Source of the DNA: Klebsormidium nitens
Taxonomy: Eukaryota > Plantae > Klebsormidiophyceae
Direction: 5' to 3'
Length of the DNA stretch: 64,000 bases
Assembly: GCA_000708835.1 (NCBI GenBank)
Contig: DF237243.1
Span: 33,691-97,690, forward strand
The translations under genes were made by a program, and so were the position numbers. The notes under the pieces were generated by a model. It searched no databases. It saw only the letters and a program-made list of their open reading frames with translations, and had not been told where the DNA came from. Position 1 is the stretch's first letter; each line of letters starts with the position of its first letter. This document shows, one piece after another, positions 43,335 through 64,000 of this stretch.

Positions 43335-45480
43335 TGGACCGAGATTTGCCTGNNNNNNNNNNNNNNNNNNNNNNNNNNNNNNNNNNNNNNNNNNNNNNNN
43401 NNNNNNNNNNNNNNNNNNNNNNNNNNNNNNNNNNNNNNNNNNNNNNNNNNNNNNNNNNNNNNNNNNNNNNNNNNNNNNNNNNNNNNNNNNNNNNNNNNNN
43501 NNNNNNNNNNNNNNNNNNNNNNNNNNNNNNNNNNNNNNNNNNNNNNNNNNNNNNNNNNNNNNNNNNNNNNNNNNNNNNNNNNNNNNNNNNNNNNNNNNNN
43601 NNNNNNNNNNNNNNNNNNNNNNNNNNNNNNNNNNNNNNNNNNNNNNNNNNNNNNNNNNNNNNNNNNNNNNNNNNNNNNNNNNNNNNNNNNNNNNNNNNNN
43701 NNNNNNNNNNNNNNNNNNNNNNNNNNNNNNNNNNNNNNNNNNNNTAGAAGATCAATGGTGGATTCTTGGTACACGCCATCAGTTACAAGAGAAAGACAAT
43801 GGGATGGACGTTCCTGAAGAGCAGCCCATGTACCGAGATTTGCCTGTTTCTTTCTAGAAGATAAATGGTGGATTCTCGGTACACGCCATCAACTACAAAG
43901 TCTGCAGAAACTCAACAGAATGGCTTTGCCCTGTGAAAATCACGAGCATGTACCGAGATTTGCCTGTTTCTCTTTAGAGTAGTATTCGTGGAATCTTGGT
44001 ACACGCCATCAACTACAAACTCTGGAGAAACTGGAATAATCACAAGCCTGTACCAAGTTTGCTTGTTTCTCTCAGAGTAGTAATCGTGGATTCTTGGTAC
44101 ACGCCGTCATTTACAAGAGAACACACGGTGGAATGGCCGACCCTCAGCACGGTGGGGATGTACCAAGTTTTCCCCTTTCTCTTTAGAGTAGTTATTTGCA
44201 GTTCTTGGTACACGCAGTCACTGGGTACGGTTACAGGAGAAAAGTCAGTAGAATGGCCGACCCATTTACAAGAGAACACACGGTGGAATGGCCGACCCTC
44301 AGCACGGTGGGGATGTACCAAGTTTTCCTCTTTCTCTTTAGAGTAGTTATTGGCAGTTCTTGGTACACGCCGTCAGTTACAAACTCTGGAGAAGGTCAGT
44401 GGAATGGCCGACCCTGCAGCGTACCAAGATTGCCTGTTTCTNNNNNNNNNNNNNNNNNNNNNNNNNNNNNNNNNNNNNNNNNNNNNNNNNNNNNNNNNNN
44501 NNNNNNNNNNNNNNNNNNNNNNNNNNNNNNNNNNNNNNNNNNNNNNNNNNNNNNNNNNNNNNNNNNNNNNNNNNNNNNNNNNNNNNNNNNNNNNNNNNNN
44601 NNNNNNNNNNNNNNNNNNNNNNNNNNNNNNNNNNNNNNNNNNNNNNNNNNNNNNNNNNNNNNNNNNNNNNNNNNNNNNNNNNNNNNNNNNNNNNNNNNNN
44701 NNNNNNNNNNNNNNNNNNNNNNNNNNNNNNNNNNNNNNNNNNNNNNNNNNNNNNNNNNNNNNNNNNNNNNNNNNNNNNNNNNNNNNNNNNNNNNNNNNNN
44801 NNNNNNNNNNNNNNNNNNNNNNNNNNNNNNNNNNNNNNNNNNNNNNNNNNNNNNNNNNNNNNNNNNNNNNNNNNNNNNNNNNNNNNNNNNNNNNNNNNNN
44901 NNNNNNNNNNNNNNNNNNNNNNNNNNNNNNNNNNNNNNNNNNNNNNNNNNNNNNNNNNNNNNNNNNNNNNNNNNNNNNNNNNNNNNNNNNNNNNNNNNNN
45001 NNNNNNNNNNNNNNNNNNNNNNNNNNNNNNNNNNNNNNNNNGTTATTTGCAGTTGTTGGTACACGCCGTCAGTTGAACGAGAAAGTCAGTAAAATGGCCG
45101 ACCCTGCAGCGTACCAAGATTGTCTCTCTCTCTTTAGAGTAGTTATTGGCAGTTCTTGGTACACGCCGTCAGTTACAAGTTCTGGAGAAAGTCAATGGAA
45201 TGGCTTTGCGCTGTAAAAATCACAAGCATGTACCAAGATTGCCTGTTTCTCTTTAGAGTAGTTATTTGCAGTTGTTGGTACACGCCGTCAGTTGAACGAG
45301 AAAGTCAGTGGAATGGCCGACCCTGCAGCGTACCAAGATTGTCTCTCTCTCTTTAGAGTAATTATTGGCAATTCTCGGTACACGCCGTCAGTTACAAGAG
45401 AGAGCCAATAGAATGGCCGCCCTGCAAGGACGTACCAAGATTGCCTCTGTCTTCATAGATCAGTTATTGGCACTTCTTAA
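43335..45480 (+). repeat. Tandem array of ~100-120 bp units, each with a ~52-53-bp imperfect palindrome (GTACCAAG...CTTGGTAC); interrupted by two assembly gaps
   Basis: At least 12 complete or partial units visible. Cores start at e.g. 43830, 43950, 44050, 44160, 44315, 44421, 45111, 45231, 45330 and 45442. Consensus gtacc(a/g)agattgcctgtttctctttagagtagttattggcagttct(t/c)ggtac-acgccgtcagttacaa plus a 30-50 nt variable but mutually related linker. Confidence 0.92.
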
Positions 45481-45676
45481 GATATACGCCATTGCCATTG
45501 GCCTATGTCTCAAGATCCACTCGACGCTCTTTCATACTGGGCACGTGCGTCTCTTCATACAAGTGCAGAGTCAACCGTCATTCCGTCAGATGTTGGTAAG
45601 AGGTCAGCCAACTATGCTTGGTATACTTAGAGGAATGCGTTTTGTCATATTGATAACTTTGTTACCTTCGTGCAGG

Positions 45677-48600
45677 ATGGCATCGACCGTGCTTGTCGTC
45701 GGCGCACCTCTGCTCCTCACCTCGACCGCTCCGGAGTCCAACGCCGGCTTGCACTCCACGCTGGCTGCTGGCGAGCAAGTTCGGGCCTTTGCCGCCATCA
45801 CGATCGGCGGGTCCGACGGCTGCTCTTCTCAACCCGATCACAAAGTCACGTTCTCGGACCTGAGGACCGTTCCGGCTGCAGTCACACCGTTGCCAAACGC
45901 CGGAGGAGTACGAGGAGGGCATCCGTCCTACACCGCACGACGAGCGCACGGTGACTTCCTCTTCGACTACGGGTTCGCCTTCTGCCTCCATCAATCGCAG
46001 GCGTTCACGAAGCGCGGTTTTGGATCCACTTGCATCGGAAGCACGTGCATGGGGAAGGTGCCCCTCTACTCCCGCAGTTTGGATCCTTTCCTCTGGGATC
46101 GGAAAAGGAACCGTGGCGGTGCGATCATCTGCCCTGGTGGAGGAGGTCACCTTCTCTGCCTCCGCTGTCTTGACGCGCTTTACGCTGGGGGTCGGCCGTT
46201 CGTTTCAACCGCCACGGGGGAGGTCGTTGACCTTGGTGACCTCTTCAGGAAGTACGAGGCCTTCCCCGCCTCGGGGGAGCTGAAGGAGGCACAGCTGGGG
46301 CAATCTGCGGCGGAGGGGGGACACCAGTTCTTCGTACAAAGACGGGATCTGGTCGCATGCCCGTTCTGCAAGGAAAGTCGACAACGAAACCGGGGCCGCC
46401 CTGAAAGGAAGAGGCTCGAATCCGGGCCGACTCCGAAGGAACTCGGCTCAGCCGCGATCTTTGCGGAGTTGAAGCGAAGCGCGGTTCCTCCAACGATCAT
46501 CGCACCCGGCCTCTTTCTCCTGCCGCAACTGGACGTCAACTGCCGGCTCATCGACATCTCGTTGAGGGACGGAAGGCCCGTCAACGTCCCCAGGCTCGTC
46601 CAGGTGGACCACTTGGGTGACTACACCTGCATGTGCGGCCAGAGGGCGTGCAGAGAGCACGACATCCGTTTTCTCAGAGAAATCGCTTTTCTCGACGGAT
46701 GGTGGCAGTCGGTTTCGAAGGAGGTCGAGCCCCTCTTCGGCTCGTTCAACGGCAAAAGAGGTTCGCACGGGAGGTGACGGGTACCGGACTCGGACGAGTG
46801 CTCCCACTTGATCGGGACGGTCAGCTTGGAGTGCCTCTGACTGGCCTCAATGCGGAGGCCTGGCTGGGGCCGCAGCTGCGCGTCTTTGTGACCTCTGAGG
46901 GAGCCGATGACTCTCCGGCGGTCTGCGTGCTCGGTGGAATGAGCGCCTTCTGCAGCAGATGCTCGGAACGGGAGCGGTGTCCGCACGTACAGAGGGTGCT
47001 TACAGCAACGGGGGTGGGAGATGGGGTTCAGAGCGGGCCTGCTCACAAGGCTACCGAGAGGGCAGCAACAAACTCGGACAAGCGTGCGGAGAGGTCAGCG
47101 CTTCGAGCGTCGGGACAGAGGAACATCTGGGTCTGCAACGACCCCATGTGTCGAAGGCCCGACTCAAAGGCTGCGTGCGTGCATGGAGGCACGCTCGAGG
47201 AGTGGGAGTGCCTCCCTGCAGCAGCCTTGGACATGGGGCACAGCCACAAGAAGATCGACACAGTCATGAGCAGGGGTGGGCAGCAGGTCACGAGCCTCTG
47301 CGAACGATGGGGTGATGAGGGGATCCGGAGGCGGGATGGGGCAAAGTACTTCTGCGCGCCGAGGCCCGTTGAACCGCTCTCACCTTGCGGGCGGCTATGG
47401 CAACTGGAGAGCAGGAGAGGATCGCTCTATACGGCTGGGGCGCGGTATCCGGTGATGACGTACCGGCGGGTGTGTACAACCGCACCAGGACGAGAGGCGG
47501 CGTGCTGCTCGGTGGCTTACGACGGTCAGGTAAGATCTAGTTCTCACCACCTGGACCAATTACCGATTGCTCCGTGTTTATTGCACTTTGTGCACGCCGT
47601 TGCTTTTTCCTTTTAGCCTTAGCACCTTGGAATGCTTTGAAGCACTCTGGCCCGCCGTGTGTCCGAATGGCAAGCTTATGCACGTCGGATTTCAGATAAT
47701 ACCGGGTCTTTAGCCTCTTTTCTGGATGCGGCACCCATTGCAAGTTGGACAAGTCTTGTACGTGATACAACTTGCGCGCCTCAAGAGTGGTCAAGCAGCC
47801 AAGTAGCGACTCGTACCCTGTATGAATGCAATAATCGCAGACTACAAGCTCCTCGTGGGGAGGCAACGGCCACACCAAATCAGTAAGACGGCCGCACTTG
47901 GAGCAAGCTTGCCACGGCCGGATCTCCATCAGCGGTTTAGGACCAGGTGTTCGATTGAAAGGCACCGGGAATTCGTGCATCACACCTCCAATATACGCTT
48001 GGGCGTCTTTGCAGGTTGATGCGGAAGCTGCCAAGTCTCGAAGAGAAAGGGCACCCTTTTGACCGATGACGCTCAATGCTGAGGCGAACTTCTCATTTGC
48101 AGCCATGGTTGTCCCTTTAAGACGCCAATCAAAACTACTGGTTGGTTTCAAACGTAGGATTCGAATGATTGAATGTATCTCTCTATTTCCTTGCAGGAGG
48201 ACGCCATCTTCAACTTCTCCGGGACGACGCTCATCTCGCACGGCCTCCTGCTGCGCAACCACTTTGCGGCAGCCTTGGGTGCTTCCCATTCGCTCAACTT
48301 TGACGCCAACGACATGGCGACCAGAAGCCTTGAAGGCCCGAGCGCATCCAGGCTGGACGACCGCGTCTTTGACGCAGCGATGCAGGCCTTCAACGATCTC
48401 GCAGCCCGGCCTCGGATCCAGCACGTCTGCAAACGTCCTGATTGCGCTCATCTGTACACGTCTGAAGTTCGAGCTGCTGAGGCAGACGCAGCGAGAGCTG
48501 GGTACCCACTCCAACCGGAGCGGACCGAGGGGTCGCCCCTGAACCTTTCAACCTACGCCTTCAGCCGGGATAAGGTCATCACGTTCGACGGCACATTTTT

Positions 48601-50473
48601 CCCCAACTCCAGTGCTATGCGGGATAGCAGCGAGGCCTCTCTGTATAGCATATGTGAGCCGGACCCGGGCGCACCTCGCGTGGCAGGGGGTTTCACCCCT
48701 CTGAGCGTCGGTGGGGTGCGGCCCTCGGACGTTCCTCTCGAGGGGATCGACTGCCCTTGGAAGTTTAGGAACGGGCTGTCGGAGCTGAGGCCGGCCGTAC
48801 GAGCAGCGGCCTTCCGATGGTGTAACTTTCGGAAGGGCCAGGGTCAGGGGGCCAACTTGCCTCTTTCGGCGGAGGAGTTCGTTGCCATGCGTCAGGGGTT
48901 GCCGGCAAACGTGAGGGCCCTGATCGACCTTGCGACAGAATCCGGGGCCTGTGCTGATCCCAAGAACTGCGCCATCTGCAAGGCGGTCCCGCGCCGGCCT
49001 TGGATGGACGAGGTGTTGAAGAAGGGTCCTGTAGCGCCCACCGGTTGGTGCCCGACCCATTTCCAGCCATATGCGGCCCTCCTGCACGCCCTCCTGATAC
49101 CCCGCTACAGCTGGGTTTTTGGCCACATCGTGACACTGAAGCTCCTTCGACGTCTGTTGCTGGAGGGGCCTCTGGACGACCTGGAGCTCGCTTACCTCGC
49201 CCAGGATGGGCCAATGCTAGCCAACATTCTCCGACTGCACGTGCAAACGGTTTCTCCAAGGCAATACGCGTTTCCAACGGCACTGCGTCCGCTCATTCGG
49301 GACATCTACGCCACCAACCTCCTCTGTTCAACGAACCGAGTGCCAACCGCCCTGGCAGCGCCTCAACTTGCTCCCCTCTCGCTGCCCTCCTCGATGCTAC
49401 GGAGCATCTGTGGGCCTTGGAGTGTGAGAGACGTCGGTCTCTGGGCAACTCAGGAGATCCTGGCATGGTCTATACGGAACAGCGTGGAATTGCGCTCAAG
49501 GGGGCCGCCAACGCTCTCCTCTTCGAGATTGAGGTTCGAGAGCCGCAATGCTACGGTTCTGATGGCTTTCTACGGGAGGCCTCGGCTGTCTACAAGGAGC
49601 GCGTGGGGGCCGTGTCAATCTACGACTTCCATCCGCTGCTCTATGGCCGGCCGCAAAAGTTCACGGATTGGGAGGACGCATCCGGTCGGGGGAAGAAGGG
49701 CTCGGAGGAGCGGCTTGCGCAGCACTGTGGGGCCCCGAATCCTCGCTCGTCGAAAGGCCGAGCGGGGATGTTCATTGCATGCTGCCAGGATCGCGCGCCC
49801 CTCGGCTACCATTGGCTTAAGGGTGGCGAGAGCGTGTCCGATAAGTTGGGAACGGTCCTGATCACACGCTTCCCCTTCAAGACGCTGCGCGGCCTGACGA
49901 TAGTGGAAGACGCTGCCTGTAATGCCCAAGAGTGGCTTCTCAACCGGTGAGTGATACAAGTTGCTTAACTTGTGCATCTCCATTAACTTGAGATGCATTA
50001 ATGTTGTGGGTCTTCAAGCTTCTATTGAGCTTTGGTGACCGAAACGCCCTATGCATGCAAGTTTTCCGTTCATGGCCTTTACTAACAATCTTTACAACTC
50101 TCTTTTGTGCAGGGTGCCACAGCTGGCAAAATATATGCTCTTCCTCGTCGACCGCTTTCACTCTGGCCCAATCAGCTGCGCGCCCGCTGGAGCGGCCAAG
50201 CGTTATGCGACGCACACTTGCTCGCCGACTTTGTTCATCGACTCCTACTCGCAGCACGATCATACCGTGACAACAGCCAGTGAAGGGATCAATTCGGGCT
50301 TAAAGCGATCGGCGGCTAGTCTCCAGCAGATCACAAGCATTAGACGCTTGATGAGTAGGATCACAACGATTCTTGACACTCTGTTTGAGAGATCGAAGTA
50401 TGCACTGTATTATCAGTCTCAAAGCGATGTTAGGAGCAGTCCGCTACGGGAGATTATCAGGGCGTCTCGTTAA
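45677..50473 (+). CDS. KDZ (Kyakuja-Dileera-Zisupton)-type transposase with N-terminal RING-like, SWIM-like and CxC-type Zn domains; 2 introns and 2 apparent -1 frameshifts
   Basis: Exons 45677-47529, 48197-49946 and 50113-50473 (GT-AG, in phase). Motifs: ICPGGGGHLLCLRC...CPFC; YTCMCGQRACREH; FCSRCSERERCPH; RRVC...YDGQ/EDAIFNFSGTTLISHGLL (CxC-like); ITFDGT; GMFIACC; GGES...LITRF; IVEDAAC...LN/R; FLVDRFH...HTCS; ASEGINSGLK, matching the KDZ catalytic-region pattern. Frame changes near 46750 and 49320. Confidence 0.8.
47537..48106 (-). CDS. XPA/Rad14-like C4 Zn-finger plus XPA-C domain protein (189 aa) with possible F-box-like N-terminal segment, nested antisense in KDZ intron 1
   Basis: ATG 48106 to TAG 47537, wholly inside intron 47530-48196. 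CSKC-x18-CDYC is followed by LTTLEARKLYHVQDL...YYLKSDVHKLAIRTHGG...AKAKRKKQRR, paralleling XPA CEEC-x17-CDNC...LITKTEAKQEYLLKDCDL...LYLKLQI...WGS. LSLRDLAASASTCK recalls an F-box helix. Confidence 0.7.
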   Translation of the reverse strand: MAANEKFASALSVIGQKGALSLRDLAASASTCKDAQAYIGGVMHEFPVPFNRTPGPKPLMEIRPWQACSKCGRLTDLVWPLPPHEELVVCDYCIHTGYESLLGCLTTLEARKLYHVQDLSNLQWVPHPEKRLKTRYYLKSDVHKLAIRTHGGPECFKAFQGAKAKRKKQRRAQSAINTEQSVIGPGGEN

Positions 50474-50603
50474 CGACAGGAGCCCGCCTTGCTCTTATGA
50501 CTGTATTACTCTATTACCCACCTGGAAGGTCCGAGACGCTCTTGACGCCTCCTAACAATCCAACATGGCCCGGCCATCAAAAGCGACATTGCAACCTGTT
50601 GAG

Positions 50604-50706
50604 AGGGTAATAGGGTAATAGGGTAATACGGATCTCAGATTGCGATCGTTTGTGGGTTGGGTCATGTGTGATGTATAAAGTTATGAGGGTAATAAGGGGG
50701 TAATAA
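50604..50706. repeat. (AGGGTAAT)3 plus two further gggtaata copies between convergent 3' ends
   Basis: agggtaat x3 at 50604-50627; agggtaata and gggggtaata at 50686-50706. Confidence 0.8.
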
Positions 50707-50762
50707 GCACTTTGGTACTACTTGTACAGTCGAGGCCTCATTGTCTTCTGGAAAGGGCCATT

Positions 50763-53744
50763 TCATTGTTCGGACTCCTCCTCCTTGCACGCACGCACGT
50801 GACTTTGTGAGCAGTTCGTGCACAACGGTAAACCCTCAGGAGAAAGTCTGACGGTCGATGGGCCTGCTGTGGGGTCCTTTTTGGCCATGTAATGGTCCTT
50901 GCCGTCAGTATCTTCCTTATAGCCCGAGTATCGACACCATCGTCCGACCCACTCAATGGTAGACGACCACAACTTCTCGGAATGCAGAGCTTTGCATATG
51001 ATTCCTTCCGGGGGGAACCACCATCCCTTGTGTGTTGGGATTTTCTGGATGCTTCTTGCTTGAGGTTGCATATCAAATTTGCCGTTGAGGTTACTAATTA
51101 GGACATTGACGTCCATATGTCGGTCCTCTTTGATGTCGAGTGCCGAGAGAAACGTATCGTATGTCGCTTTAATATCCACCGAAGCTACCCAAGTTTCTAC
51201 AGAAGGGTGAAAGCAACCGTTCTCAAGCAGCGCCTGCATCATCTTGACGTGTGGAGGTATGGAGTGATCCTTTAAACTCTCGCCCCATGCGGTGACTGGG
51301 ATCGTCTGCGGATTCCAATCAGAGATGTCGATCGAAGAGAGGTACTTATAGAAGCTCAAAGCCGTTTGCGGATCTTGGAGCTCTTTTATGAGACCGTCGA
51401 AGTACTCCTTGTTGCCAACCATGGCGCCAGAGCATTCCTGGCAGGAATACCGCCGATCCCCCGCCTCTCGTTTGACCGGCCATGTATTATTTGTTGTGAA
51501 AATAATGTTGCTCACGTCCTTGGTCTTTATGGCATCAAAACCCTTCTTTTCTACGCAGGTCTCCGACTCTGTTATCAGTGACTTCATCCGATCGTTGAGC
51601 TTGTAGGCTCCTCCCCAGTTTCCAGCCTCGTCAAAGACGATCAACAACCGATTGGCAGATAATGCATTGAATTGACCGATCACCTTTTCGATCTCATTGC
51701 AATATAGATAGTTTTTGCTTCCAATGATCATCATCCCCAAGAAGTCGGCCAACATGGATTTGCCGCACCCTTGCGGGCCTCGAAGAACCCAGGCAACTCC
51801 GATCTTCTTTCTTGGTCTTTGAACGGCGTGGGCCATCCACTTGACGTTGTATGCGAATCTTGTTTCGCACCCGTCGCTGAGGATGGCCCTGATGTGCCAC
51901 ATGAGCTTGGGCATTTGCAACTCACAGTCGGCCATCTCGGAAGGTTCTAGCTTTTGCAGAAGAGGCTTGAACTCCAGTCCGCAGAATAGGTTGAAGTGAC
52001 GCGAAGTAACCTTGCTTAGGTCAGGCTCGAAGACAATCCGGTCGTACTCCTGTCGCTTCGAGTTGCTTTCCCAGAACTTTGCAGCTTCCTTGTTCTTGCC
52101 GGGCAGACAATCCAACTGAATGTTCCTGCACCGTTCAATAAAGTTGTGGCCTGGCCTTTCTATCACCTCTTCTCGTTGGAGGTTGCCGTCTTTGTCACGG
52201 CAGAAGACGAGCTCGGTATAAACCGTCTTGTTTCCTCCAATCACAACCGCAAAATAGGCGTTCATCACCTTGATAAGAAGATTGTACATGTCGTTCCTGC
52301 GCTTCTTCCTTTCAGCCGCTTCCTCTTTACTAAGCTTCTTCGTTTCATCGCTTCTTGGAACCAAATAGCGCTCACATTCTCGGATCATGGACGCCTCTGC
52401 TCTCAGCGGCAAGCACTCCGGCCAATAATAGATCCCAAGCAAGCACGCTAGACGTTTGATGCACTCTGAACTTAGACAACGGTAAAGTAGAATGGCACCA
52501 TTGCACAGGATGCTGAAGTTGTTTGAGACGTGTTCGCACCCGTTCAAGCACGTTCGCGTGCCAATCGTTTTAAACTTAAGGACTTGCCAGCCTGTCTGAG
52601 TCCTCATCCCAACACCATTGAAACGACTTTGGTCCTCTGGCAACACGTTTTGCAGCATCTCTCTAATTGCAGTGAGAGCGGGCTGCAACCCAGGCAAAAT
52701 GGAATCCATATTCAAGTCCGAGCCCCCTGTTGATTCTTCAGCTTGTGTGTACTGATTGTTGGGCGAGCTGATGCGCCTGTTCGAGTTGCTGAGGCTTTTG
52801 TTGACCTCCACATTTCCCGTTGTACTACCGACTGCCTTTGTTGACGTGTCGTTCAGGAATCGAACCAACCACGGCGGCATAGCGACTCGTGGTGTGGTTT
52901 CATCACCTTCTATCCAGGAATAGCCAAAGGCTCTGCCCTTGTTATCTTGGTAACTCGAGGGGCTTACAAAAGCTATTCCGTTGCTTCCACGACCATCAAT
53001 CGCCCATGTAGTACCTTCGTGAAGGATTGTCGAGAAGTTTAATGGATTGAGAAGCCCTTCGGTCTTGCTTGCAGAGAAAAAGTAGTGTAAACCGTTTCCT
53101 GAACCTGTTCTTGCCTTTAATGTGATGATGTCACCGTGTTTCTTTATCAATTCCTCCCACAGTTCTGTTCCAGCCTCCTTCCCTGCGTTCGTGTCTGTGG
53201 CCTCCTTCCTTTCTGCGTCTACATCAAGCAGAAATATGTCCGAAATCCCACACAGGACCGCCAAAGCGTTCACGTTCGATGGCGCTCGGCAAACATAGGC
53301 ATCGATCCTCTGTTTGTATGCCTCGGTGGACGTCCATAATGGTTTGTACCCTCCTTTACTGAAGATGGGCTTCTTTTTCCCATCCGAGTCCATTTCGAGC
53401 CTTAACGGGATGGCATACATGCCTTGCTTGTAGAGCGATCGGATCGACTTTACCAAAGGGTACTTGTGTCTGTTGATCGATCTCCTAGGGGTGTTGATGG
53501 TGGTATCGTCTGGTTCGAAAAGTGCCCCACTCTGATCGACAACCAGCAGCCGAATGTCGGCATTTGGCGGCATGTCAGTTGATAAATCGGGGTTCTTCGT
53601 TGGAGCATTCATACTCGGCACCTGCTGTGGCTTCGGCACTTCATTCGGTGGTGCTGTGGCCAAAGCAGCATCTAGGGTCTGATGAGGCCTTGAGCCACTT
53701 GCTAGCACACCGGTTTGGAAGGTGCTGATCATGGCGGGCTCCAT
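50763..53744 (-). CDS. Intronless primase-helicase: N-terminal bifunctional Prim-Pol, central Zn finger, C-terminal D5-like SF3 helicase (993 aa)
   Basis: Prim-Pol motifs FLLDVD, RTGSGNGLHYFF, IDGRG...FVSPSSY, PWL. Zn motif CLNGCEHVSNN...YRCLSSEC. SF3 Walker A GPQGCGKS, Walker B IVFDE, motif C IIFTTNN, and GDRRY. Confidence 0.92.
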   Translation of the reverse strand: MEPAMISTFQTGVLASGSRPHQTLDAALATAPPNEVPKPQQVPSMNAPTKNPDLSTDMPPNADIRLLVVDQSGALFEPDDTTINTPRRSINRHKYPLVKSIRSLYKQGMYAIPLRLEMDSDGKKKPIFSKGGYKPLWTSTEAYKQRIDAYVCRAPSNVNALAVLCGISDIFLLDVDAERKEATDTNAGKEAGTELWEELIKKHGDIITLKARTGSGNGLHYFFSASKTEGLLNPLNFSTILHEGTTWAIDGRGSNGIAFVSPSSYQDNKGRAFGYSWIEGDETTPRVAMPPWLVRFLNDTSTKAVGSTTGNVEVNKSLSNSNRRISSPNNQYTQAEESTGGSDLNMDSILPGLQPALTAIREMLQNVLPEDQSRFNGVGMRTQTGWQVLKFKTIGTRTCLNGCEHVSNNFSILCNGAILLYRCLSSECIKRLACLLGIYYWPECLPLRAEASMIRECERYLVPRSDETKKLSKEEAAERKKRRNDMYNLLIKVMNAYFAVVIGGNKTVYTELVFCRDKDGNLQREEVIERPGHNFIERCRNIQLDCLPGKNKEAAKFWESNSKRQEYDRIVFEPDLSKVTSRHFNLFCGLEFKPLLQKLEPSEMADCELQMPKLMWHIRAILSDGCETRFAYNVKWMAHAVQRPRKKIGVAWVLRGPQGCGKSMLADFLGMMIIGSKNYLYCNEIEKVIGQFNALSANRLLIVFDEAGNWGGAYKLNDRMKSLITESETCVEKKGFDAIKTKDVSNIIFTTNNTWPVKREAGDRRYSCQECSGAMVGNKEYFDGLIKELQDPQTALSFYKYLSSIDISDWNPQTIPVTAWGESLKDHSIPPHVKMMQALLENGCFHPSVETWVASVDIKATYDTFLSALDIKEDRHMDVNVLISNLNGKFDMQPQARSIQKIPTHKGWWFPPEGIICKALHSEKLWSSTIEWVGRWCRYSGYKEDTDGKDHYMAKKDPTAGPSTVRLSPEGLPLCTNCSQSHVRACKEEESEQ

Positions 53745-53843: not shown

Positions 53844-54006
53844 ATGGAACTAGCCGACCTCACCAGCAGAGAAACGACCAACATGGGCTGTACCTGCAAG
53901 AATTGCCTTTATGTGAAGCACTTTCACGAACGGCATCCAAATGCACACAAAACGTACATGAAGCGCCATTACACGAAAAAGAGGACCGAGATTCTGCTAA
54001 GACAAG
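53844..54006 (+). CDS. Small basic Cys/His-rich ORF, truncated by assembly gap
   Basis: MELADL...GCTCKNCLYVKHFHERHPNAHKTYMKRHYTKKRTEILLRQ. Starts 99 bp from the divergent D5 ATG; stop not sequenced. Confidence 0.5.
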
Positions 54007-54874
54007 NNNNNNNNNNNNNNNNNNNNNNNNNNNNNNNNNNNNNNNNNNNNNNNNNNNNNNNNNNNNNNNNNNNNNNNNNNNNNNNNNNNNNNNNNNNNNN
54101 NNNNNNNNNNNNNNNNNNNNNNNNNNNNNNNNNNNNNNNNNNNNNNNNNNNNNNNNNNNNNNNNNNNNNNNNNNNNNNNNNNNNNNNNNNNNNNNNNNNN
54201 NNNNNNNNNNNNNNNNNNNNNNNNNNNNNNNNNNNNNNNNNNNNNNNNNNNNNNNNNNNNNNNNNNNNNNNNNNNNNNNNNNNNNNNNNNNNNNNNNNNN
54301 NNNNNNNNNNNNNNNNNNNNNNNNNNNNNNNNNNNNNNNNNNNNNNNNNNNNNNNNNNNNNNNNNNNNNNNNNNNNNNNNNNNNNNNNNNNNNNNNNNNN
54401 NNNNNNNNNNNNNNNNNNNNNNNNNNNNNNNNNNNNNNNNNNNNNNNNNNNNNNNNNNNNNNNNNNNNNNNNNNNNNNNNNNNNNNNNNNNNNNNNNNNN
54501 NNNNNNNNNNNNNNNNNNNNNNNNNNNNNNNNNNNNNNNNNNNNNNNNNNNNNNNNNNNNNNNNNNNNNNNNNNNNNNNNNNNNNNNNNNNNNNNNNNNN
54601 NNNNNNNNNNNNNNNNNNNNNNNNNNNNNNNNNNNNNNNNNNNNNNNNNNNNNNNNNNNNNNNNNNNNNNNNNNNNNNNNNNNNNNNNNNNNNNNNNNNN
54701 NNNNNNNNNNNNNNNNNNNNNNNNNNNNNNNNNNNNNNNNNNNNNNNNNNNNNNNNNNNNNNNNNNNNNNNNNNNNNNNNNNNNNNNNNNNNNNNNNNNN
54801 NNNNNNNNNNNNNNNNNNNNNNNNNNNNNNNNNNNNNNNNNNNNNNNNNNNNNNNNNNNNNNNNNNNNNNNNNN

Positions 54875-55982
54875 GCTTACGTTCGTAGCTTCTCATAGCC
54901 GTGGGCCAATCGTGAAGCATCCGTTTGGCTACAGCCTCCCGTTGAACAATCGAGTGGTCCCCCTTAAAGGCGTCAGATATGTAGACATGTCTGAGATGGT
55001 TCATTGTAAGGTACCGTCCTTTGCTGAATTCGATGCCGGCGACGAATCGACTGAGGTAATTGTCGGACATTGGCGTCGTGACATCATTGAGCCGTGTCAA
55101 GAAGTATGCCCTTGGAATGAGGACCAAAGACCGTTTGATATATTGCGATAACCGTTTGCTCAATTCGAAATCCTGGCGTCCATACCGAGATGCGGTTTTG
55201 AAGGTCGTAAGTGTTAAGACGAAAGAGTCTTTGGAGCACTCCTTCAGCGCGTTGCCAGATTGCTCGTGCACACCCTGCGCTTCGGCGCTATGAAAGGAAC
55301 CGTCTGGCTTTTGTAGAGGGAGATTGCTGAAATCCCGACGTTTTGGCGGCTCGAGGGTATTCGCGGCTAGCACGAGATGCTGAAAGACCGTTTTGATGTC
55401 GTCTCGTTCTAGTGGTCTTCCAAGTTGGTAAGTGTGGACGATCTGCCGTCTGATCTTTCGCCCGAGCTCTTCCATTTTTGCCTTGATTTCTGCCATACTG
55501 ATCCAGTTTTCTTGCTCCCTTTGAGTGGGCGTTTGACATAAGGTTTGATTGCTCTGCTTGTTTTTCGCCAAAAGGAACGCGGCAAAGAACTGGTCGTACG
55601 CTTCGCCCCATTTTCGTGACTTTGAGATGGCCATCAGGGGTGTAAGCTTGTTGCAGAGGCTTCCTGGAGACCATGCCGCCTTTGCGGCGTTGCTTTGGCG
55701 TTCTCTTATGGCGTTCACGATGGTGCCGGCGTCTCTGATCCAATCTATGTCTGTCGGCAGCTCCGCCGTTTCATTATTGGTGATTAAGCCGTATATGATC
55801 CTTAGGCTATTGATGTACTGGGAGCAAGTTGATTCGGCACGATGTGAGCCGTCCTGTAAAACACTGAGATGAACCTGCTCACCACACATAGGGACTGCTC
55901 TCAGCTCGTTTGCTTGGTTGTCCCTGGGTGCTTCTTCGGTGCTTTGCTGAGTTGCCATTGCTGTTGTTGTGATCGTATGCAA
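54875..55982 (-). CDS. Tyrosine recombinase/integrase, intronless; last codons run into gap
   Basis: Catalytic pattern R (PPKRRDF), K (TFKTASRYG), HxxR-like (MNHLRHVYIS), H (KRMLH) and Y (MRSY) in the expected order. QENWISM also recalls integrases of Polinton-like viruses and NCLDVs. Confidence 0.85.
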
Positions 55983-55984
55983 GA

Positions 55985-56228
55985 TTATAATTCTACAATT
56001 ATCAAACGTGCCTCAATCAAAAATTCCGAATTATCTCTTTCGGAAAGGTTATATGTGGGTTATATGTCACAAGTCACAGGTTATACTCGATATTCCAGAA
56101 TTGTGATTCACGGGGGTCGTATTTTTGAGATGGTGCTCCGAAGTGAAAAATAACAAACGGAATAAACGATATAGGGATCAACATCTACTCTGAGAATTTC
56201 TAGAAATTATCCAAAGACGCCAGAATTA
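55985..56228. promoter_or_regulatory. AT-rich divergent intergenic region, probable bidirectional promoter
   Basis: Visibly AT-rich spacer between the head-to-head recombinase ORF and ORF 56229. No specific motif established. Confidence 0.35.
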
Positions 56229-56933
56229 GTGACGGAGCATGTTCGCAAATTTAGTGCATCAGGGTTCCTTGCTTTCATTGATAGCAATTGCTCTTTTCTA
56301 AATAGCATGGACACGCGGGATCTTGCTACAGGGTCCATCCTATGGCTACTGCATATTTTCACCGGTTCTACTACAGATCGAATGGATGACCAAGACTCTC
56401 AGCATCTCACAGCCGGAAGCAGCAATTGCCGATCCTTTCGTATCCTAGGCGCGTTCGACATGTCCAAGAGCTCAATAGTGGATCGATCCAATCTCCTGAA
56501 TAACGGTCGATTCCTCATTAGCGCAAGCAACGGCCGAGTTTCTCAAGTTGGTACTCGTGCTGGCAGTATGCTCTACCGGAGACTCAAAGATACAGAAATC
56601 GATCGACTGCCATACAAGGCAGGAGTGCTTGCAGAAGAGACGACCAGAGGAAGCCGTCAAAAACGCTATGCATACGAAGTTACCTTGAGCAGCTTACCAA
56701 TCGAAAAGCAAGCTTCTGAGCATATGGCCTTCCAGGGCTCCTATAAAACAACCGCCCTCAAGATGAAAGTGGAAGACTTCTACAAAGCAATGCATCCGGC
56801 CAACCGCCGGACGCGTGGCAGGTTGATTTCGTTCATTGAAGACGGCGACGTCAAACCCCGTCCACCGCGAAGCAAAGTTCATGTGCGTACAAAACCAATC
56901 ATTGCAAAAACGAAGCAGGTTTCGACAGAGTAG
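56229..56933 (+). CDS. Hypothetical protein (<=234 aa; true start may be a downstream ATG)
   Basis: Uninterrupted ORF packed between neighbours, with a basic C-terminus. No motif recognised. Confidence 0.55.
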   Translation: MTEHVRKFSASGFLAFIDSNCSFLNSMDTRDLATGSILWLLHIFTGSTTDRMDDQDSQHLTAGSSNCRSFRILGAFDMSKSSIVDRSNLLNNGRFLISASNGRVSQVGTRAGSMLYRRLKDTEIDRLPYKAGVLAEETTRGSRQKRYAYEVTLSSLPIEKQASEHMAFQGSYKTTALKMKVEDFYKAMHPANRRTRGRLISFIEDGDVKPRPPRSKVHVRTKPIIAKTKQVSTE

Positions 56934-56982
56934 AACGCTCTTCAGACCTTGCATCAGTACAACCTCAGATCAGCGATCTGAT

Positions 56983-57609
56983 TCATTCTGAAAAGGGTGC
57001 TCTACGAGTCTTTGAAGGGTTAGCAAGAGCGTCGAGATGGAGATCCATGACTTCAGAGTTTTCATCCCAGAAACGGCTGCGGTAAGGGGTTTCAGAGGCA
57101 TCTTCATTGGCCCAATCATGCGGAACGTCAGTTGGAGATCTAAAGTCTATTTTGTATGCCAGATCGTCCGCTAAAGCCTTGCTTCTTTTCTTATGCATTT
57201 TGAAGTGTGATTGTCGCAGACGTTGGGCGTCTCTTCTTGCCCTATTGGCCCGCTTTAAAGCAAGACTCCAGTCAACGTGAACCGTATAAGGAGATTCGTG
57301 CAAACCGGATTTATCCCAGTACGCATAGAAGCCCTCAGCCACCAGAGCTCTAACGACACTGCGTGTGATATGATGAAGGCTGAATGGCTTGGTTAGAGCT
57401 CGTATGCCGGCTAGGATTCCAATGTCGAGAGTCTTACTTAGAAGACCTTGCTCTTCGAAGCACCTTACAATTGCAAACTTTACCGATTCAAACACTGAAC
57501 GGTCCATCTCTTTTATCATATGCTGCTCACGTGGTATGAATCCAATTATCGCTTCCATACATTCGTGTCGAAAACATGATTGATCACATGCCATGCGGTA
57601 TACATGCAT
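56983..57609 (-). CDS. Hypothetical protein (208 aa)
   Basis: Uninterrupted ORF convergent with 56229-56933 (49-bp gap); helical, protein-like composition. No motif recognised. Confidence 0.6.
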   Translation of the reverse strand: MHVYRMACDQSCFRHECMEAIIGFIPREQHMIKEMDRSVFESVKFAIVRCFEEQGLLSKTLDIGILAGIRALTKPFSLHHITRSVVRALVAEGFYAYWDKSGLHESPYTVHVDWSLALKRANRARRDAQRLRQSHFKMHKKRSKALADDLAYKIDFRSPTDVPHDWANEDASETPYRSRFWDENSEVMDLHLDALANPSKTRRAPFSE

Positions 57610-57814
57610 TGGGCTAGATATCTATGTGCATAGATAGGCTCAGATCCTTACCACTGCTTGGATTTAAGGGGCAACTTAGCTCTCACATACAAATACAATG
57701 GCTACATCTAGCATCTTGACAAACAAAGCGAATAAATTACAAGCTCGAGGATGACCACGTGATCAACGTTGACCCTAAGCTAACGCAGCACTAACAAGAT
57801 ATATACACCTTGAG

Positions 57815-60800
57815 CTATGTGCTCCTTGGAGGGGCGATTATGCAAGGCTCCACTACGGTCTCAATCTCAGGTGGGCCTAACTCGGCAAGCAAAGGGGCTC
57901 CAGAGGACCTACGTAGTAAGTGGTCAAACTCGCTCGCATCTACCACATCCAGGAACTCTCTGACAGCTGGAAGAAGCTCCATCCGGCACTTCCAAAACTC
58001 CGGCACCTCCCGGAATCGCAACTTCGTCAGCTTCGCCATGCGAAGGATGCTCTTCTCAGCCAAGCTGAGTTTGTAGTCGTTCAGCCCCGCGCTCGACCCG
58101 TAGTTCTTCCCCTTTCCCCGCCGCGCTCCACGGGAAACTTCCACGAGCTTCCCCAGCTTGAGGCCCATCCACCCCAAAACCACGTTGACTGCCTTCTTAA
58201 TCTGCCCCGGCAGCAGATGAACCTGCCCCTCTTTTGGTCTCGGTAGCTTGAAGCGGAACAATTCGGAGGGAGTACGGGAGGCCAGAGACGAACTATCCGC
58301 AGCAAACTTGGCCCGCCCTTCAAAGATACCAGTCTTCATGAGCCGTTCCCTCAAACCGCCTGCTAAGAGCGTAGGGGTATACCCCTTGTCGAAAGGATGC
58401 GCCAGACCCAAAGCGCTGATCAGTTCCTTAGCATACTCAACCCTTAGGATTTCGAAGCTCTTGGGACCCATCGCCTTTTGGTCCAGCGTCTGCGCTGGGG
58501 CTGGGAGCAGTACCTTAAGGAGATTCGCCAAGGGCTCCGAGAAGGGCGACTTGTAGGCGGCCTGTGTCTTCAGGAAGAAGCTGTCATCGAGGTCCTTCAA
58601 ACCATAGAATGCGCAAGCCTCGTACTTGGCGACCTCGTTATGCTGCGTCCCCCTGTCTCTCTTCACATCTCTCAAGCTAGCCAGCTCTGCATATTCCACT
58701 GCCCCGATCGTCTTTGCTTCGATGATGTCGTATGCTTCTTGAGTTAGCCCCCCTCTGCGCTTAGACTGCTTCGTGGGCTCCACGTAAGGCTCCACTTCCA
58801 CAACGTGGCCGGCTTTTGCGACTTGCGCCTGGAATTCCTGAAGTAAGCGAGCGTCCGAGTTGCGTCGCTCCGCCTCCGTGTGTCCCAGCGTCCGAAAGAG
58901 AGGCCCGTCCTCGATCAACTGGACTGCCCCCGTCGCATTCTCAGCGCGAGAGCGTACACGACTCCAGGCAGCCGCCGCGCGTGAGGTGCAAGCTTGGAGG
59001 AACTGCAGCGTCTCGGCGGTTGTCACCCGTCTTGGGGGGAGAAACACCCCAGGCTGGCCGCCCTGCATGATCAACGAAGCACTGGTCAGGCTCTGATCGA
59101 GCAAAAGACGTCAGTGTCTTTTACGAGAGCTGCCTATTCTCTGACAATCACGCTGGACTATGGAATAGGCTGTGCAAGGCTCATTGTGCTACTGTGCTTA
59201 TGTGGTCAACCATTTTGCCTGACCCGCCCAAGTCAAAAGTCCAATCAAGCAGAAAAACGTCCCCCGTAGCTCACAAACGGTTCAACGGTTCAATGACACT
59301 TGTGTTGAAGGCTCGACTCTGCAAATCGACCAAGGTAGGGCTGCTAGGCCAAAACATCATTTCGTGCTCTCACAGACTTACCTTGGCTTTCCCTTTCTTG
59401 CAATCCGAGTCTGAGGGGGGCATCGATGCCCGCTCTGCGCGGTGGGGCGCCTTCAAAGGGCTCCCATCTGCAACCTGCTCGTCGAGTCGCTCAACAGCAT
59501 CGTCTTGTTGCACCTGGAGAGTGAGATCGTGCGCAACCATGAGACATCGATCATTCACAGACATAACTGCAGGGACAGATCATCCTAGTACGCTTGAAAA
59601 GCCACTGGTAAGCAATCAAACACTGATTGAAGTAACTTTCTCTGAAGCGCAGCAATGCTTAGAACCATTCAGCTCACGTGCCGGCCGCGTACCTCTGAAG
59701 TGACATCCTCATCCGCGTCTTGTACCGAAGGCTCCGGCTCTGGTGAGGACGTTCCAGCGGTCTCCTGCACATAATCAATTGAGCAGTATAAAGGCGATGC
59801 GAATCATCGTCACCCTAGTGACAACAACGACTCGGGGTTCCAAGCATTCCCTTCAACGACGGAACGTGACCGTTTAGAGCTTCTGGTGGAAGTTACTTGA
59901 GAGTCAGTCACGGATCGACCATATGTTCCAGTCCAACGATGAAAGCTCCAACGTACTACTAAACTCAATGTGCCGCGCTCGACCATTGGCAGAAACTACT
60001 AGAAACTACTATGAGTTTCTAACTTCTAAAGGTACAGGCTCCGATCTAGGATCATTGTAGATGATGCAACTTACCAGCTCGATGTCCAGATCTGCCGACG
60101 GAACCTCGGGAGCACAGTCAAGCCGTACGGAGATGCCCTGCTGCACGAAGCAGTACACCAAGGGGCTTTCCGTGCGACGGACCCGCAGCGAGGCCTGCCA
60201 AACAGCCCGAGCTGTCGTGCTCTGCTTGCACATGTACAGGTACTTGCTGTGAAACCACTCCTCGTCGAAGTTCACCCCCGCCTCGACCGAAGGGCTGTAC
60301 ATCAGCAGTCGAACTTTCCAGTTGACATTGACGTTCTCGAGCAGAGCAGTGTTGTCACCCCCGCTCATCGCCCTATGCATCAGAATGTCCCCCTCTTCGA
60401 GCCCAAGCGAGTGCCGACCCCCCCCACTCAGCACCCGGTCCCGTATCCTATCCAAGACACGGGCTGACATGCTGACGACGACGACATTCTTTCCGCTGGA
60501 TAGGTCGCGCACGATGCGGTCCAGCCAGAGCGCTTCTTCTTGACAGACGCGGAACGTGAGAGGCACCTGCAGGAAAGTTTTAATAGAGATTCAGAGCAAG
60601 TATGAGCGCGGCCTAAACACAGTTTACTAGTCATCGAGCCTGTCAGGCGCTACCTGTGACGGACGCAGCAGAGAGGTGACCGAGAAAGCACTTTGACGTC
60701 AACTTGCAACCATTCTATGCTTGGAAGGAAGATAAATTGTGGTTCAATCTCTCAGAGGTAGTCATAAAAGGGGAGTATCGAGCAACCCACGGAAGCAGCA

Positions 60801-63620
60801 GCGGCTTTGCCAACACATGCTCAGAAGTTGGTAGATCAGCATTGACTCTATGAGCGCACGCGCATGTCTTCTTAACCACAAAAGGAACCAGAACCTCGAA
60901 TCAGTGCATGCAACTAAATTCCTTGTACTTGTCGGCTTGGATCGTGGATGGTACAAGGAAGCTCACCTTTGCCCGTCTCGTATTGATGACGAGCTTCCCT
61001 GGTACCTTGGCCAGCTGAAAGAAGTCGTGCTCGCGCTGGCCGTAGCCGTCGTCCATGGCCAGAACCCGCTTGGCTTTCTGCACAATCTCGAGGAACAGCT
61101 CTCCGGTTTCGAGGCCGCACCTCAAGGTCGCAGAAGAGAGATGCGCCAGAATGCTGGCCGCCTCGTCCAGAATGACGAGATCGAAAGGGGCGACCTCGCC
61201 AACGCCGTGTGGGCGCAGGTTGAGCAGGCTGTCCACCTGAACCACGACCCAGGGGAACACGCTCCGGTTCTGGAGAGCAGTCAGGAAGTTGTTGGGGCAG
61301 TCCGGGTCTGGAAATAGCTCGTCCTTGTAGTCAGCCTTCAGATCGAGGTAGTTCGCAGAGTCAGGGAAGCGCTGCTTGAGATCTTTGGCTTGAGCGATGC
61401 AATACGTGATCATGAGTTTGGTCACAAGGCGCCCGTCAGCTTGAAGTAGGTGACGAATCTCCTCGAGAATGCTCTTGCAGAACTCCGTCTTGCCCGTGCC
61501 CACCCCAGAGCGGAATGCGAGCAGCTGAAAAGCTCCAGCGAGCCACCTGTGACAGCATGAAGCCAAAGGTTACATTGGTATCTGGATTTTGAGCCAGATT
61601 CGAGAGCGCGCTCCTTTCTTGGACCAAAGGATGCAAAGTGCAGCCCTGTTAATGTGTATAGAATCGTGCACCAAGAACGACGAGACTTAGGATGCATGTC
61701 GCAGGAAATGGAACTTTGTCAGATTGCGAAGATGTAGAAGCCTGTGCTGAGAATGAAGCTTGGACCTCGATCAACTTTTCTCCAGCAGCAGAGTGGCAAT
61801 CCTTGCTGCAGAATTATTATGAAAACAACCAGAACACATTACTCAAATACATGCAACAAACAACTCTCAGATGTGGGATGTGGGAAAATTACTGGTCAGC
61901 GACCGTGTTAAGCTTCAGCACGTCCGTAGTTGGCTCTTGCCCATGTGCCACACGAGCGAGGAGCTCGGGACTCGATGCTGCTGGGTCTCGCTGCAAGTAC
62001 TGCATGTCCACGCGGACAGCACCAGACTCGTAGTTGATGTCGTCCTCGAACAAATCCCCGAGGTAGAAGGCCTTGGCCCGGCACGGCAAATCAGATTCCC
62101 CACCTTCAGAGTTGGTGCTGAAGCAGAGGGCATAAATCTTGCCCTTGGGAGTCAGATGACAGGTCAGGTTCTGGTGGTTCTCGTGGATCCGACCCGTGTA
62201 GCAGGGTTCCGAGCGGTCGAAATAGTTGAAGCGATCGGGTCCCTCCACGTAGGCGGTGGGGTGCAGCCGCTCCCTGAGCAGCTCCAACATGCGGGCCCTG
62301 ACAAAAGCCTCGTTCTTGGGCGTTCGCGTGGTCCCCTCGTGAGTCATCTGCTGGGGGGTCTTGTACTTTCGATGCAGATTCCCAGGCAGCTGGAACGGCA
62401 CCTTGATCTCCTCACGAGCCTGCAAGAAAGACCAGAAGCACCTGATAAGCATATTGCCCCAGCTCATGTAAACAAACCAGCAGGACCAACGGACACATTA
62501 ACAGCAGACTCTGAGGAAAGGGTTCGCATGCGGTTTAGCAACAAACGAGGACAAACGGGACAGAACAATTACAGATTGCTTCAATAGCAGCAAAACGGAG
62601 TGGCGTTCTACGGAAGTAAGGCCATAGGCAGAAACCGCATGACTTACCTCAAGTGGTTCCAGCCAGGTAACCAGGGCGTCCTTCCAAGTGTGACCCAAGT
62701 TCACGAACTGAAGGACGCTCTCAGGTTTCTCGATCTTGGCGCTTCCCGGCGTGCGCCACTCTCGATCTTTCGAGTACACATTCAGGTCGATGAGGGGGGC
62801 GACTGTAGGATACCAGGGCTGCAGCCTTCTCTTGAGACGGGTCGCAAAGTGCGCGGCGCCACTCTCGAAGTTGGACGCAAAGACAAGCTGGCGAGGGAGA
62901 AGCTGGTTGATGGTCAGGTGCAGGCTGACCTTGGCCTGCCCGCCGCTCTCCATCCAAACGAAGCTGCTCGGCTCTAAGTCTAGGGCGTAGCACTCCTTGA
63001 AAACGATGGTCGCCCACTCCTGGATTATCTCCATTACTTCCTCCAGCGTGTACCGCCCCTCGCTGGTTTCCCTGTGCTCCGCCGCACCACGCGCTTCTTC
63101 TCTGGCCCCACTGCTGGGCCCTGCTTCCGAGACAGCTGCACTATCCCCCGTTTTTGCCAAGGCTGCATCTGCTTGCTTCGACTTTCGCCTGAAGGGGAGC
63201 CCGTCCTTGCCATCCAGATCCAAGTAGGGCTTGCACGGCTGTCCGTTCTGAATGACTTCAAACACGGACCTGTGGCCGTCCAGGTTTCTGCAGGCCGTCT
63301 CCCAGTCTGGATAAGAGGCGAAGCTGCGCCACCCGATTGGGACCCCAGCTTCGGTGCGCATACCGGACCACTTGTGGAGCGCCACTTGCACCTCGTGGTT
63401 GAGCAGCGCAGCCTCTTGCTGCATGAAGTGCTTGGGCCCAGGAAAACGGCTCAGGTTCTTCCCCGCTTGGTGGAAGCAGTTGGTGCCGAATTCATGCACG
63501 CGCAGTACTCGAAAGCCGTCCTTCTTGAAGACCTCGTTCCCAGTCAAAGGCTCAGAGCGAATCTCTGGCTCAGGCACAGCGCTGAAGCCCTGGGGCAGCC
63601 CCCGTTCGGCGCCGCGCTTC
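57815..63620 (-). CDS. AEP primase fused to UL9-like (origin-binding protein) SF2 helicase, >=1340 aa, >=7 exons; first exon lies further right
   Basis: Exons 63620-62648, 62419-61893, 61546-60967, 60566-60075, 59764-59693, 59513-59382 and 59062-57815 join in phase. AEP motifs KPYLDLD, KVSLHL, IDLNVYSKDREWR; Zn motif CYTGRIHENH. UL9-type helicase motifs SGVGTGKT, VQVDSLLNL, VILDEAASILAHL, AMDD, YSPSVEAGVNF, QASLRVR. Confidence 0.88.
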
Positions 63621-63740
63621 CTGGAAAAGAGGATCACACAGGAATCAGATCGAATGCCCTCTGCAGGTACCTACTACTACGTGCCTCTGTATCCAAGGTC
63701 CGGCAGAAAGGGTTCGGTGGCATACAACAAAGCGGTATGT

Positions 63741-64000
63741 GTACCAAGCTGCGCATGTCTCTTCTTGAGATGTAAAAGGCTGTTTCTTGGTACGAACGTG
63801 GTCAACTACAAACACGCTGATTCGGTAACTCAGAGTTACGGCGGTTCTTGCAGTCAAGTACCAAGCTGTGCCTGTCTCTTTTTAGAAAGTAAGAGGCTGT
63901 TTCTTGGTACAAACGAGGTCAACTACAAAAGCTAACTTCCGAAATCCACACGCATAGCCCTCCTTCAGTCATGTACCAAGTTTCGCCTGTCTCTTTTTAG
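63741..64000 (+). repeat. Second array of the palindromic repeat family (2 full units plus 1 partial; period 115-117 bp), continues off window
   Basis: 53-bp cores GTACCAAG...CTTGGTAC at 63741-63793 and 63858-63910, and a third from 63973. Each full core is followed by (g/a)aacg(t/a)ggtcaactacaaa and then a largely dissimilar 45-nt or 43-nt linker. Same orientation as the 43.3-45.5 kb array. Confidence 0.9.

Follow-up and report, generated by a model that had tools for sequence, protein, structure and literature searches.

A recurring and apparently undescribed composite element of Klebsormidium nitens, pairing a KDZ-like transposase with virus-type replication genes

In the streptophyte alga Klebsormidium nitens, a stretch of 64,000 nucleotides (assembly GCA_000708835.1, contig DF237243.1, positions 33,691 to 97,690; hereafter the window) carries at its right-hand end an element that brings together a KDZ (Kyakuja-Dileera-Zisupton)-like DDE transposase, a tyrosine recombinase (YR), a Prim-Pol primase joined to a superfamily 3 (SF3) helicase of D5 type, an AEP primase joined to a UL9-like superfamily 2 (SF2) helicase (AEP-UL9), and two arrays of palindromic repeats. 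It represents an apparently undescribed, recurring family of composite elements, whose self-replication is unproven; as the original prediction for this DNA had supposed, no account of the whole combination was found in the open-access literature searched. The element is two-layered, with the spliced, host-like KDZ and AEP-UL9 genes on the outside and an intronless YR and Prim-Pol/D5 module of Polinton-like virus (PLV) type on the inside. The explanation favoured here, which is given about an even chance of being right, is an old family of composite KDZ transposons which acquired a PLV module and whose replication is likely primed by the element itself, at the palindrome arrays.

Gene content of the element

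The four genes named in the original prediction proved real by profiles, residues and gene models, the KDZ gene indirectly. This last lies on the forward strand at 45678..50473 and encodes a protein of ~1,300 aa in three inferred exons (45678-47529, 48197-49946 and 50113-50473), the limits of which were placed by splice signals, these introns being without RNA support. Neither the KDZ pieces of the window nor their relative P0099 gave a direct Pfam match; the assignment comes from relatives, 6 of the 13 scanned proteins matching PF18758 (KDZ) at any level and P0089 doing so above the cut-off (E 1.4e-8), together with D/D/E residues that line up with those of the relatives. Against the unbroken 1,299-aa model KFL_007110040 (P0099), tblastn gave 59-78% identity over five segments. 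Cys/His clusters are visible, and CxC4 was matched in two distant relatives only, below the cut-off. From the representative matches, 20 of 33 had been set aside, these being long proteins that match the query at ~260-310 only, in many stretches. The last KDZ intron (49947-50112) is missing from P0064 and P0098, where the region is a single open reading frame (ORF), whereas P0065 and P0101, both ending at one and the same residue, apparently retain it; this would represent intron gain or loss inside the KDZ family. Between the converging 3' ends of KDZ and D5, at 50605..50704, lie three copies of AGGGTAAT and two more GGGTAAT motifs, a cluster that is a possible boundary or binding site and that paralogous DNA contigs reach from either side with short overlaps (20-37 nt).

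The inner module begins with an intronless ORF on the reverse strand (50763..53744, 993 aa) that matches PF09250 (E 1.6e-10) and PF19263 (E 5.5e-19) and contains the DxD, His, Walker A, Walker B and motif C signatures of a Prim-Pol plus SF3 (D5/NrS-1-like) helicase. The window is eukaryotic, and this ORF is identical over 840 of 840 residues to K. nitens model KFL_002940120. Beyond an assembly gap of 868 N (54007..54874), which DNA contigs enter to depths of 148 and 223 letters, comes the intronless YR, of PLV type, on the same strand (54876..55958, at least 361 aa, its last codons falling in the gap). The YR has the catalytic residues R-K-HxxR-H-Y, which are conserved in full-length relatives, and in the atlas it lies closest to clusters that are mostly Preplasmiviricota (0.98) and to one with PF00589 (0.97, the family being found on 16% of its members). 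The five best PDB fold matches of its structure model (pLDDT 53) are all Cre, but at E 0.3-0.6, below significance; there was no match in phage records, none among sequences of solved structures and no meaningful Pfam match. Two small genes follow: ORFa (56307..56933, forward, 208 aa), which is kept in paralogous copies, gave no Pfam or PHROG match, no PDB match under E 0.9 and no viral relative, and ORFb (56983..57609, reverse, 208 aa) gave no significant match. Scans for related loci with D5 and YR, and with the whole AEP-UL9 and ORFa, confirmed nothing. As side observations, three runs yielded RNA contigs that align to D5 at ~90% over 52702-53548, such that another D5 copy seems to be transcribed; a short DNA contig of depth ~300, possibly a high-copy derivative, aligns to the D5 3' end (50909-51073); and GGTTATA occurs three times at 56047-56085 in the spacer between the divergent YR and ORFa, as a candidate promoter or recombinase site.

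The layering of the element is also evident in its composition. The intronless genes (D5, YR and the two small ORFs) have a GC content of 0.46-0.51, and of 0.42-0.59 at third codon positions, as against 0.58-0.62 and 0.62-0.74 for the spliced KDZ and AEP-UL9 genes and 0.56-0.57 and 0.67-0.68 for host exons. The window holds the pairing of YR with a primase-SF3 helicase that is typical of PLVs (10.1101/2022.07.28.501842, 10.64898/2026.06.19.733378), and seven PLV capsid loci, on contigs KFL_556, 572, 1558, 1713, 2520, 2626 and 2767, are listed for K. nitens itself (PgVV column of a table in the supplement of PMC10120064); because of these two facts, the inner module is most simply interpreted as a captured piece of a PLV.

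Splicing and transcription of AEP-UL9

The outermost gene on the right, AEP-UL9, runs on the reverse strand over 57815..63626, with seven exons in the window that were placed by RNA contigs (63626-62648, 62419-61893, 61546-60967, 60566-60075, 59764-59693, 59513-59382 and 59062-57815). All six GT-AG joints are present in RNA contigs from three of the three RNA-type runs, which come from three studies, and in none of the one DNA run, the RNA label of the runs resting on the spliced joints, as none is recorded as RNA. Joined, the exons form an open frame of 1,353 codons within the window. The helicase profile matches the herpes origin-binding protein (E 3e-10) and the AEP profile matches human PrimPol (E 3e-8); a structure model of the AEP part (pLDDT 45) had no fold match, so that the AEP assignment rests on the profile search. 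Additionally, the AEP alignment drew in viral sequences with 23-26% identity, from four loci, of which three bear the names of giant-virus metagenome-assembled genomes. One UL9 exon is 100% identical to K. nitens model KFL_002940130, which, like KFL_002940120, is annotated merely as a hypothetical or domain-containing protein.

The gene does not end with the window. RNA contigs from the three runs all stop at the splice acceptor at 63626 and continue with 1,450-1,523 extra letters that do not match 63627-64000, and residues 1-604 of the matching AEP-UL9 model (P0053) are without a match in the window; consequently, both the gene, with its first ~604 codons, and the element extend to the right of 64000. 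For the KDZ, YR, ORFa and ORFb genes of this copy there is little or no RNA-contig cover, which is not evidence of silence. The summed contig depth from the KDZ 3' end to ORFa, 2-4x that over UL9, was not used, depth not being copy number.

Near the N-terminus of AEP-UL9 proteins, at residues ~228-235 of P0053 and hence to the right of 64000, there is a 2A-like ribosome-skip motif, G-[G/C/A]-[V/I]-E-S-N-P-G-[P/M/W]. A scan of 155 collected proteins gave six matches, all of them AEP-UL9, and P0059 was added by eye as a seventh (the carriers being P0053, P0054, P0056, P0057, P0059, P0060 and P0155). The motif is without the canonical D, and the final P is kept in 3 of the 7; changes of that D were inactive in two model 2A peptides, yet an expanded core, (D/G/C/N)(V/I)ExNPGP, is given in the same preprint (10.64898/2026.09.24.754024). 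It was also observed that six of the first eight other K. nitens AEP-UL9 models bear the gene number 0010 on their scaffold and are mostly marked partial, which places the family at assembly breaks.

Recurrence of the gene order

The weightiest evidence, indirect as it is, comes from the recurrence of the window's gene order in divergent copies elsewhere in Klebsormidium. KDZ adjoins D5 in four other records, YR stands before D5 in seven, and D5 adjoins UL9 on one other scaffold. In incomplete comparison lists made up of cluster representatives and longest contigs only (13 KDZ, 26 D5, 15 UL9 and 51 YR), three contig sizes (30547, 10251 and 68235) are exactly the same for KDZ and for D5 relatives among 26 x 13, where 0.006 are expected by chance, and these represent 3 of the 7 KDZ contigs of at least 10 kb; YR and D5 share two (38474 and 44300), with 0.03 expected. 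Five K. nitens models fuse a piece of YR in front of D5, and one of these, KFL_014570010, comprises a YR part, D5 and a final exon antisense to KDZ at 70%, i.e. KDZ, D5 and YR as in the window. The consecutive models KFL_002740170 and KFL_002740180 (YR/D5 and UL9, with 58% and 49% identity to the window) have the order of KFL_002940120 and KFL_002940130. Among paralogous contigs of the DNA run, three bridge from the YR side to ORFa and one bridges ORFa, ORFb and the 3' end of UL9.

In a D5 tree of 27 rows, from which P0001, P0007 and P0011 were dropped as too short, the 17 D5s of Klebsormidium type fall into three sub-clades; a KDZ-linked member occurs in every one of them, and linkage across all three makes a chance pile-up unlikely. 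Moreover, across four copies the KDZ distances are ranked like the D5 distances, and the KDZ that diverges most accompanies the D5 that diverges most. Based on these results, the core of the element is KDZ-D5-YR. At least two lineages have AEP-UL9 joined to this core, and here it is tied in by the array family shared between the KDZ end and the inside of the UL9 gene. The possibility, raised with the original prediction, that the genes occur elsewhere solely apart from one another is not borne out, and its alternative of a virus fragment with an unrelated KDZ insertion gives way to a recurring composite, as the order is shared by divergent copies.

Palindrome arrays

The repeat unit of the arrays, ~100-155 bp long, consists of inverted GTACC(A/G)AG boxes that flank a spacer of 35-37 bp with 57-69% A+T, the values for the left array being 63-69%. 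The left array (43336..45492, forward orientation, interrupted by the N gaps 43353-43744 and 44442-45041) has 12 units detected by profile and, at 43336, half of another, while the right array (63741..64000, ending at the window edge) has three units, two of them whole and one cut by the end of the window. That both belong to one family in direct orientation, as originally proposed, is upheld by a profile of the left units, which finds the right unit at 63858 with E 2.9e-9, its sole other match in the 64 kb being 20 nt long (E 0.14). Mean identity is 61% between left and right units, 75% within the left array and 81% within the right.

The placement of the arrays at the two flanks, by contrast, did not survive. 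Because RNA contigs jump from the acceptor at 63626 and residues 1-604 are unmatched in the window, the right array is inside an intron of AEP-UL9. The left array lies just upstream of the splice acceptor that immediately precedes the KDZ ATG, and since the start codon directly follows an acceptor, this array may be intronic too. The arrays are therefore not the ends of the element. Seven viral loci matching the array pattern, with one or two matches each, were taken as chance, and other repeat clusters at 1-40 kb are of different families, those at 35.2-35.8 and 38.7-39.2 kb lying within a PhoPQ-related host gene.

A model of the element and the points that weigh against it

What is observed comprises the genes themselves, the order they take in other copies, and the splicing and transcription of AEP-UL9. 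On the favoured reading, a KDZ transposon with a host-adapted AEP-UL9 gene would have captured an intronless YR and Prim-Pol/D5 module from a PLV, after which the block would have multiplied and diverged as one. Herpes UL9 opens its origin. By analogy, the UL9-like domain may bind the paired GTACCAAG boxes and open the A+T-rich spacer; AEP and Prim-Pol/D5 would then prime and unwind, and a host polymerase would extend, yielding extra copies that the KDZ enzyme would insert at ends outside the arrays, with the YR resolving or circularizing intermediates.

Several results speak against this explanation. Within the window, which does not include the right end of the element, neither a terminus nor an inverted repeat nor a target duplication came to light, and there was no 13-bp inverted match between 39.7-45.7 and 57-64 kb; co-mobility is consequently deduced from gene order alone. 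Linkage elsewhere is itself indirect, having been read from protein models, model numbering and identical contig sizes; the co-ranking of KDZ and D5 involves four copies only, and the bridging overlaps at the ORFb-UL9 junction are as short as those at the KDZ-D5 junction. Nine of the ten UL9 models other than that of the window (11 are known) sit on scaffolds for which no D5 model turned up, 49 of the 51 YR contig sizes match no D5, and size matches numbered 0 of 13 x 15 for KDZ-UL9, 0 of 13 x 51 for KDZ-YR and 0 of 15 x 51 for UL9-YR. The D5-linked YRs have 26-31% identity to the YR of the window while their D5s have 57-64%, a pattern compatible with swapping of modules or with repeated insertion. 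The window also contains damaged or doubtful frames and no visible DNA polymerase gene. The KDZ frame breaks near 46750 and 49330, and the window copy probably needs transposase in trans; one DNA run has an extra base at 46754 relative to the window, and the first break may thus be an assembly error. Within the UL9 gene, base 60172 is missing in four of four runs, and its loss would throw the codons that follow helicase motif VI out of frame; the frame of the window at this base agrees with paralogues, and the sequenced cultures may carry a frameshifted AEP-UL9 allele.

Alternative explanations

Some of the same results would be expected if a small, capsid-less, PLV-derived element of YR and Prim-Pol/D5 repeatedly and site-specifically inserts behind the KDZ of a separate KDZ/AEP-UL9 array transposon, such that the order would arise by targeting rather than by co-inheritance. 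The very divergent YRs at one position, the intronless inner module with its distinct composition, the scarcity of D5 beside other UL9 models and YR contigs, and the short repeat motif at the KDZ-D5 junction all point that way. However, KDZ and D5 distances co-rank, their link spans three D5 sub-clades, and no empty KDZ-UL9 junction was seen among the contig sizes; this insertion scenario, although the most credible of the alternatives, is unlikely.

Less probable again is a fusion in the manner of Teratorn, whereby an endogenous capsid-encoding virus, either a PLV of the PgVV group or a small relative of the nucleocytoplasmic large DNA viruses (NCLDVs), would have joined a KDZ transposon, its capsid module lying to the right of 64000 or having been lost from this copy. 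The seven PLV capsid loci of K. nitens are close in number to the eight D5 models seen here, the neighbours of the YR are Preplasmiviricota, the element continues past the window, and AEP-UL9 fusions occur in mriyaviruses, mimiviruses, as well as in African swine fever virus (ASFV). Nevertheless, no capsid or A32 match was obtained from the 13-23 ORFs scanned, the 868-N gap, if sized correctly, is shorter than a 406-aa capsid gene, and half of the four genes resemble those of the host and are rich in introns. The search for major and minor capsid proteins and A32 ATPase covered ORFs at 45-64 kb, with dedicated PLV capsid profiles not applied and with the gap and the right flank outside it; the original remark that no capsid is present hence stands for the window, but does not extend to a genome with PLV capsid loci of its own.

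It is very improbable that the arrays mark, as direct terminal repeats, the two ends of a circle-forming unit cut out by the YR. They do belong to one family in direct orientation, and the YR does have its catalytic residues, but the right array is inside an intron, the two arrays are less alike than the units within either, and excision between them would sever the start of a transcribed gene. Unrelated elements that piled up by chance, or scaffolding that went wrong at the three N gaps, could be argued from those gaps and from every gene family being multicopy, but this reading is scarcely credible and largely refuted by the recurrence of the order in divergent copies. The KDZ-D5 and YR-UL9 stretches are ungapped, and 56750-64000 is covered by a pair of contigs from an independent DNA run.

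Comparison with known systems

KDZ transposons share with the element a PF18758-related DDE transposase with possible cysteine clusters, the carriage of cargo and an occurrence in green algae; they differ in that their described cargo is TET/JBP, with TIR or CA..TG termini and a target duplication of 7-8 bp (PMC12730594, PMC8226300), as opposed to two primase-helicases and a YR here, and in that the window protein falls below Pfam detection. PLVs of the PgVV group have in common with it the intronless YR and primase-SF3 helicase, but the window lacks a capsid or A32 match and instead has a fixed KDZ neighbour and a second, spliced primase-helicase. The markers of Polintons/Mavericks, namely a protein-primed PolB and a retroviral-type integrase, had no match among the window ORFs scanned. 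The AEP-SF2 (UL9-like) helicase of mriyavirus/NCLDV type is present in the window, and capsid, viral late transcription factor, HUH endonuclease and DNA polymerase were not found by the window scans, the left flank consisting of ordinary host genes. The viral AEP-UL9 proteins (mimivirus R8, ASFV pF1055L, mriyavirus SF2_hel and SmDNAV; 10.1101/2024.02.29.582850, 10.64898/2026.08.29.747986) likewise have an N-terminal AEP with intact motifs and a UL9-like SF2 helicase, whereas the algal gene, a multicopy and transcribed one, is interrupted by at least six introns, with a 2A-like motif lying upstream and an SF3 helicase present alongside it. As SF2 and SF3 primase-helicases are mutually exclusive in mriyaviruses (10.1101/2024.02.29.582850), the presence of both in one element is unusual.

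By the content of the window, then, the element is not a member of the PLVs, Polintons, mriyaviruses or Teratorn. Teratorn or the Amoebidium 'Plavaka giant repeats', in which a DDE transposase is found with viral or YR cargo, come closest to its likely workings. Teratorn, a piggyBac-herpesvirus fusion of 180 kb with polymerase, capsid and terminase (PMC10175614, PMC6431247), similarly joins a DDE transposase to viral replication genes that are propagated in the genome; here, however, the transposase is KDZ-like rather than piggyBac, the genes are of PLV and NCLDV type, and no polymerase, capsid or terminase was seen in the window. The Plavaka giant repeats are also large repeated blocks, up to 50 kb (PMC11244446), with a flanking DDE transposase and tyrosine recombinase genes inside, but their enzyme is EnSpm-like (PMC12730594), and the accessible text of PMC11244446 does not mention primase-helicases or origin-like arrays for them.

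Setting of the element in the window

The left 40 kb of the window consists of intron-rich host genes, including a cereblon-like gene with a Yippee domain, a sphingosine-kinase-like gene and a PhoPQ-related gene; in the authors' own reading, an HSP70-like ORF is there as well. Within host genes are clusters of tandem copies of 115-175 bp (35175-35787, 38718-39244, 13466-14300, 23983-24418 and 1934-2283). That at 35.2-35.8 kb is a repeated exon of the PhoPQ-related gene, and the clusters may be serial exon duplications. Two long inverted-repeat pairs, at 29849-30553 (137 nt, 80%) and 30956-32620 (~120 nt, 76%), are possibly small non-autonomous transposons, and a near-perfect 58-bp hairpin (-20 kcal/mol as DNA) occurs at 40612-40669, to the left of the left array, within a stretch at 39.9-43.3 kb to which no gene was assigned.

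Significance

The widest claim that might be built on these data, and one that is advanced as doubtful, is that the family constitutes a new class, i.e. a capsid-less, self-priming mobile element of eukaryotes and a nuclear counterpart of the integrative elements of bacteria. Such an element would combine a herpes-style origin, where a UL9-like protein would act on the palindrome arrays, two primase-helicases, a circular stage dependent on the YR and insertion by KDZ, with an origin-binding gene that is now spliced, constitutively transcribed and furnished with a 2A-like site. Fusions between transposons and viruses have so far been documented mainly by Teratorn in fish. It has been speculated in a review that a nucleic-acid-primed polymerase and a primase, when coupled with an integrase, could give rise to new large transposons (PMC6431247); the present family is without a polymerase, yet would exemplify a primase coupled with an integrase, and this in a streptophyte alga that is cultured, sequenced and related to land plants. 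In addition, with a UL9-type origin-binding protein lying beside a candidate binding array in a single locus, origin recognition by AEP-UL9 fusions becomes directly testable. If the favoured explanation is true, K. nitens harbours an unusual hybrid of transposon and virus that primes its own DNA copying.

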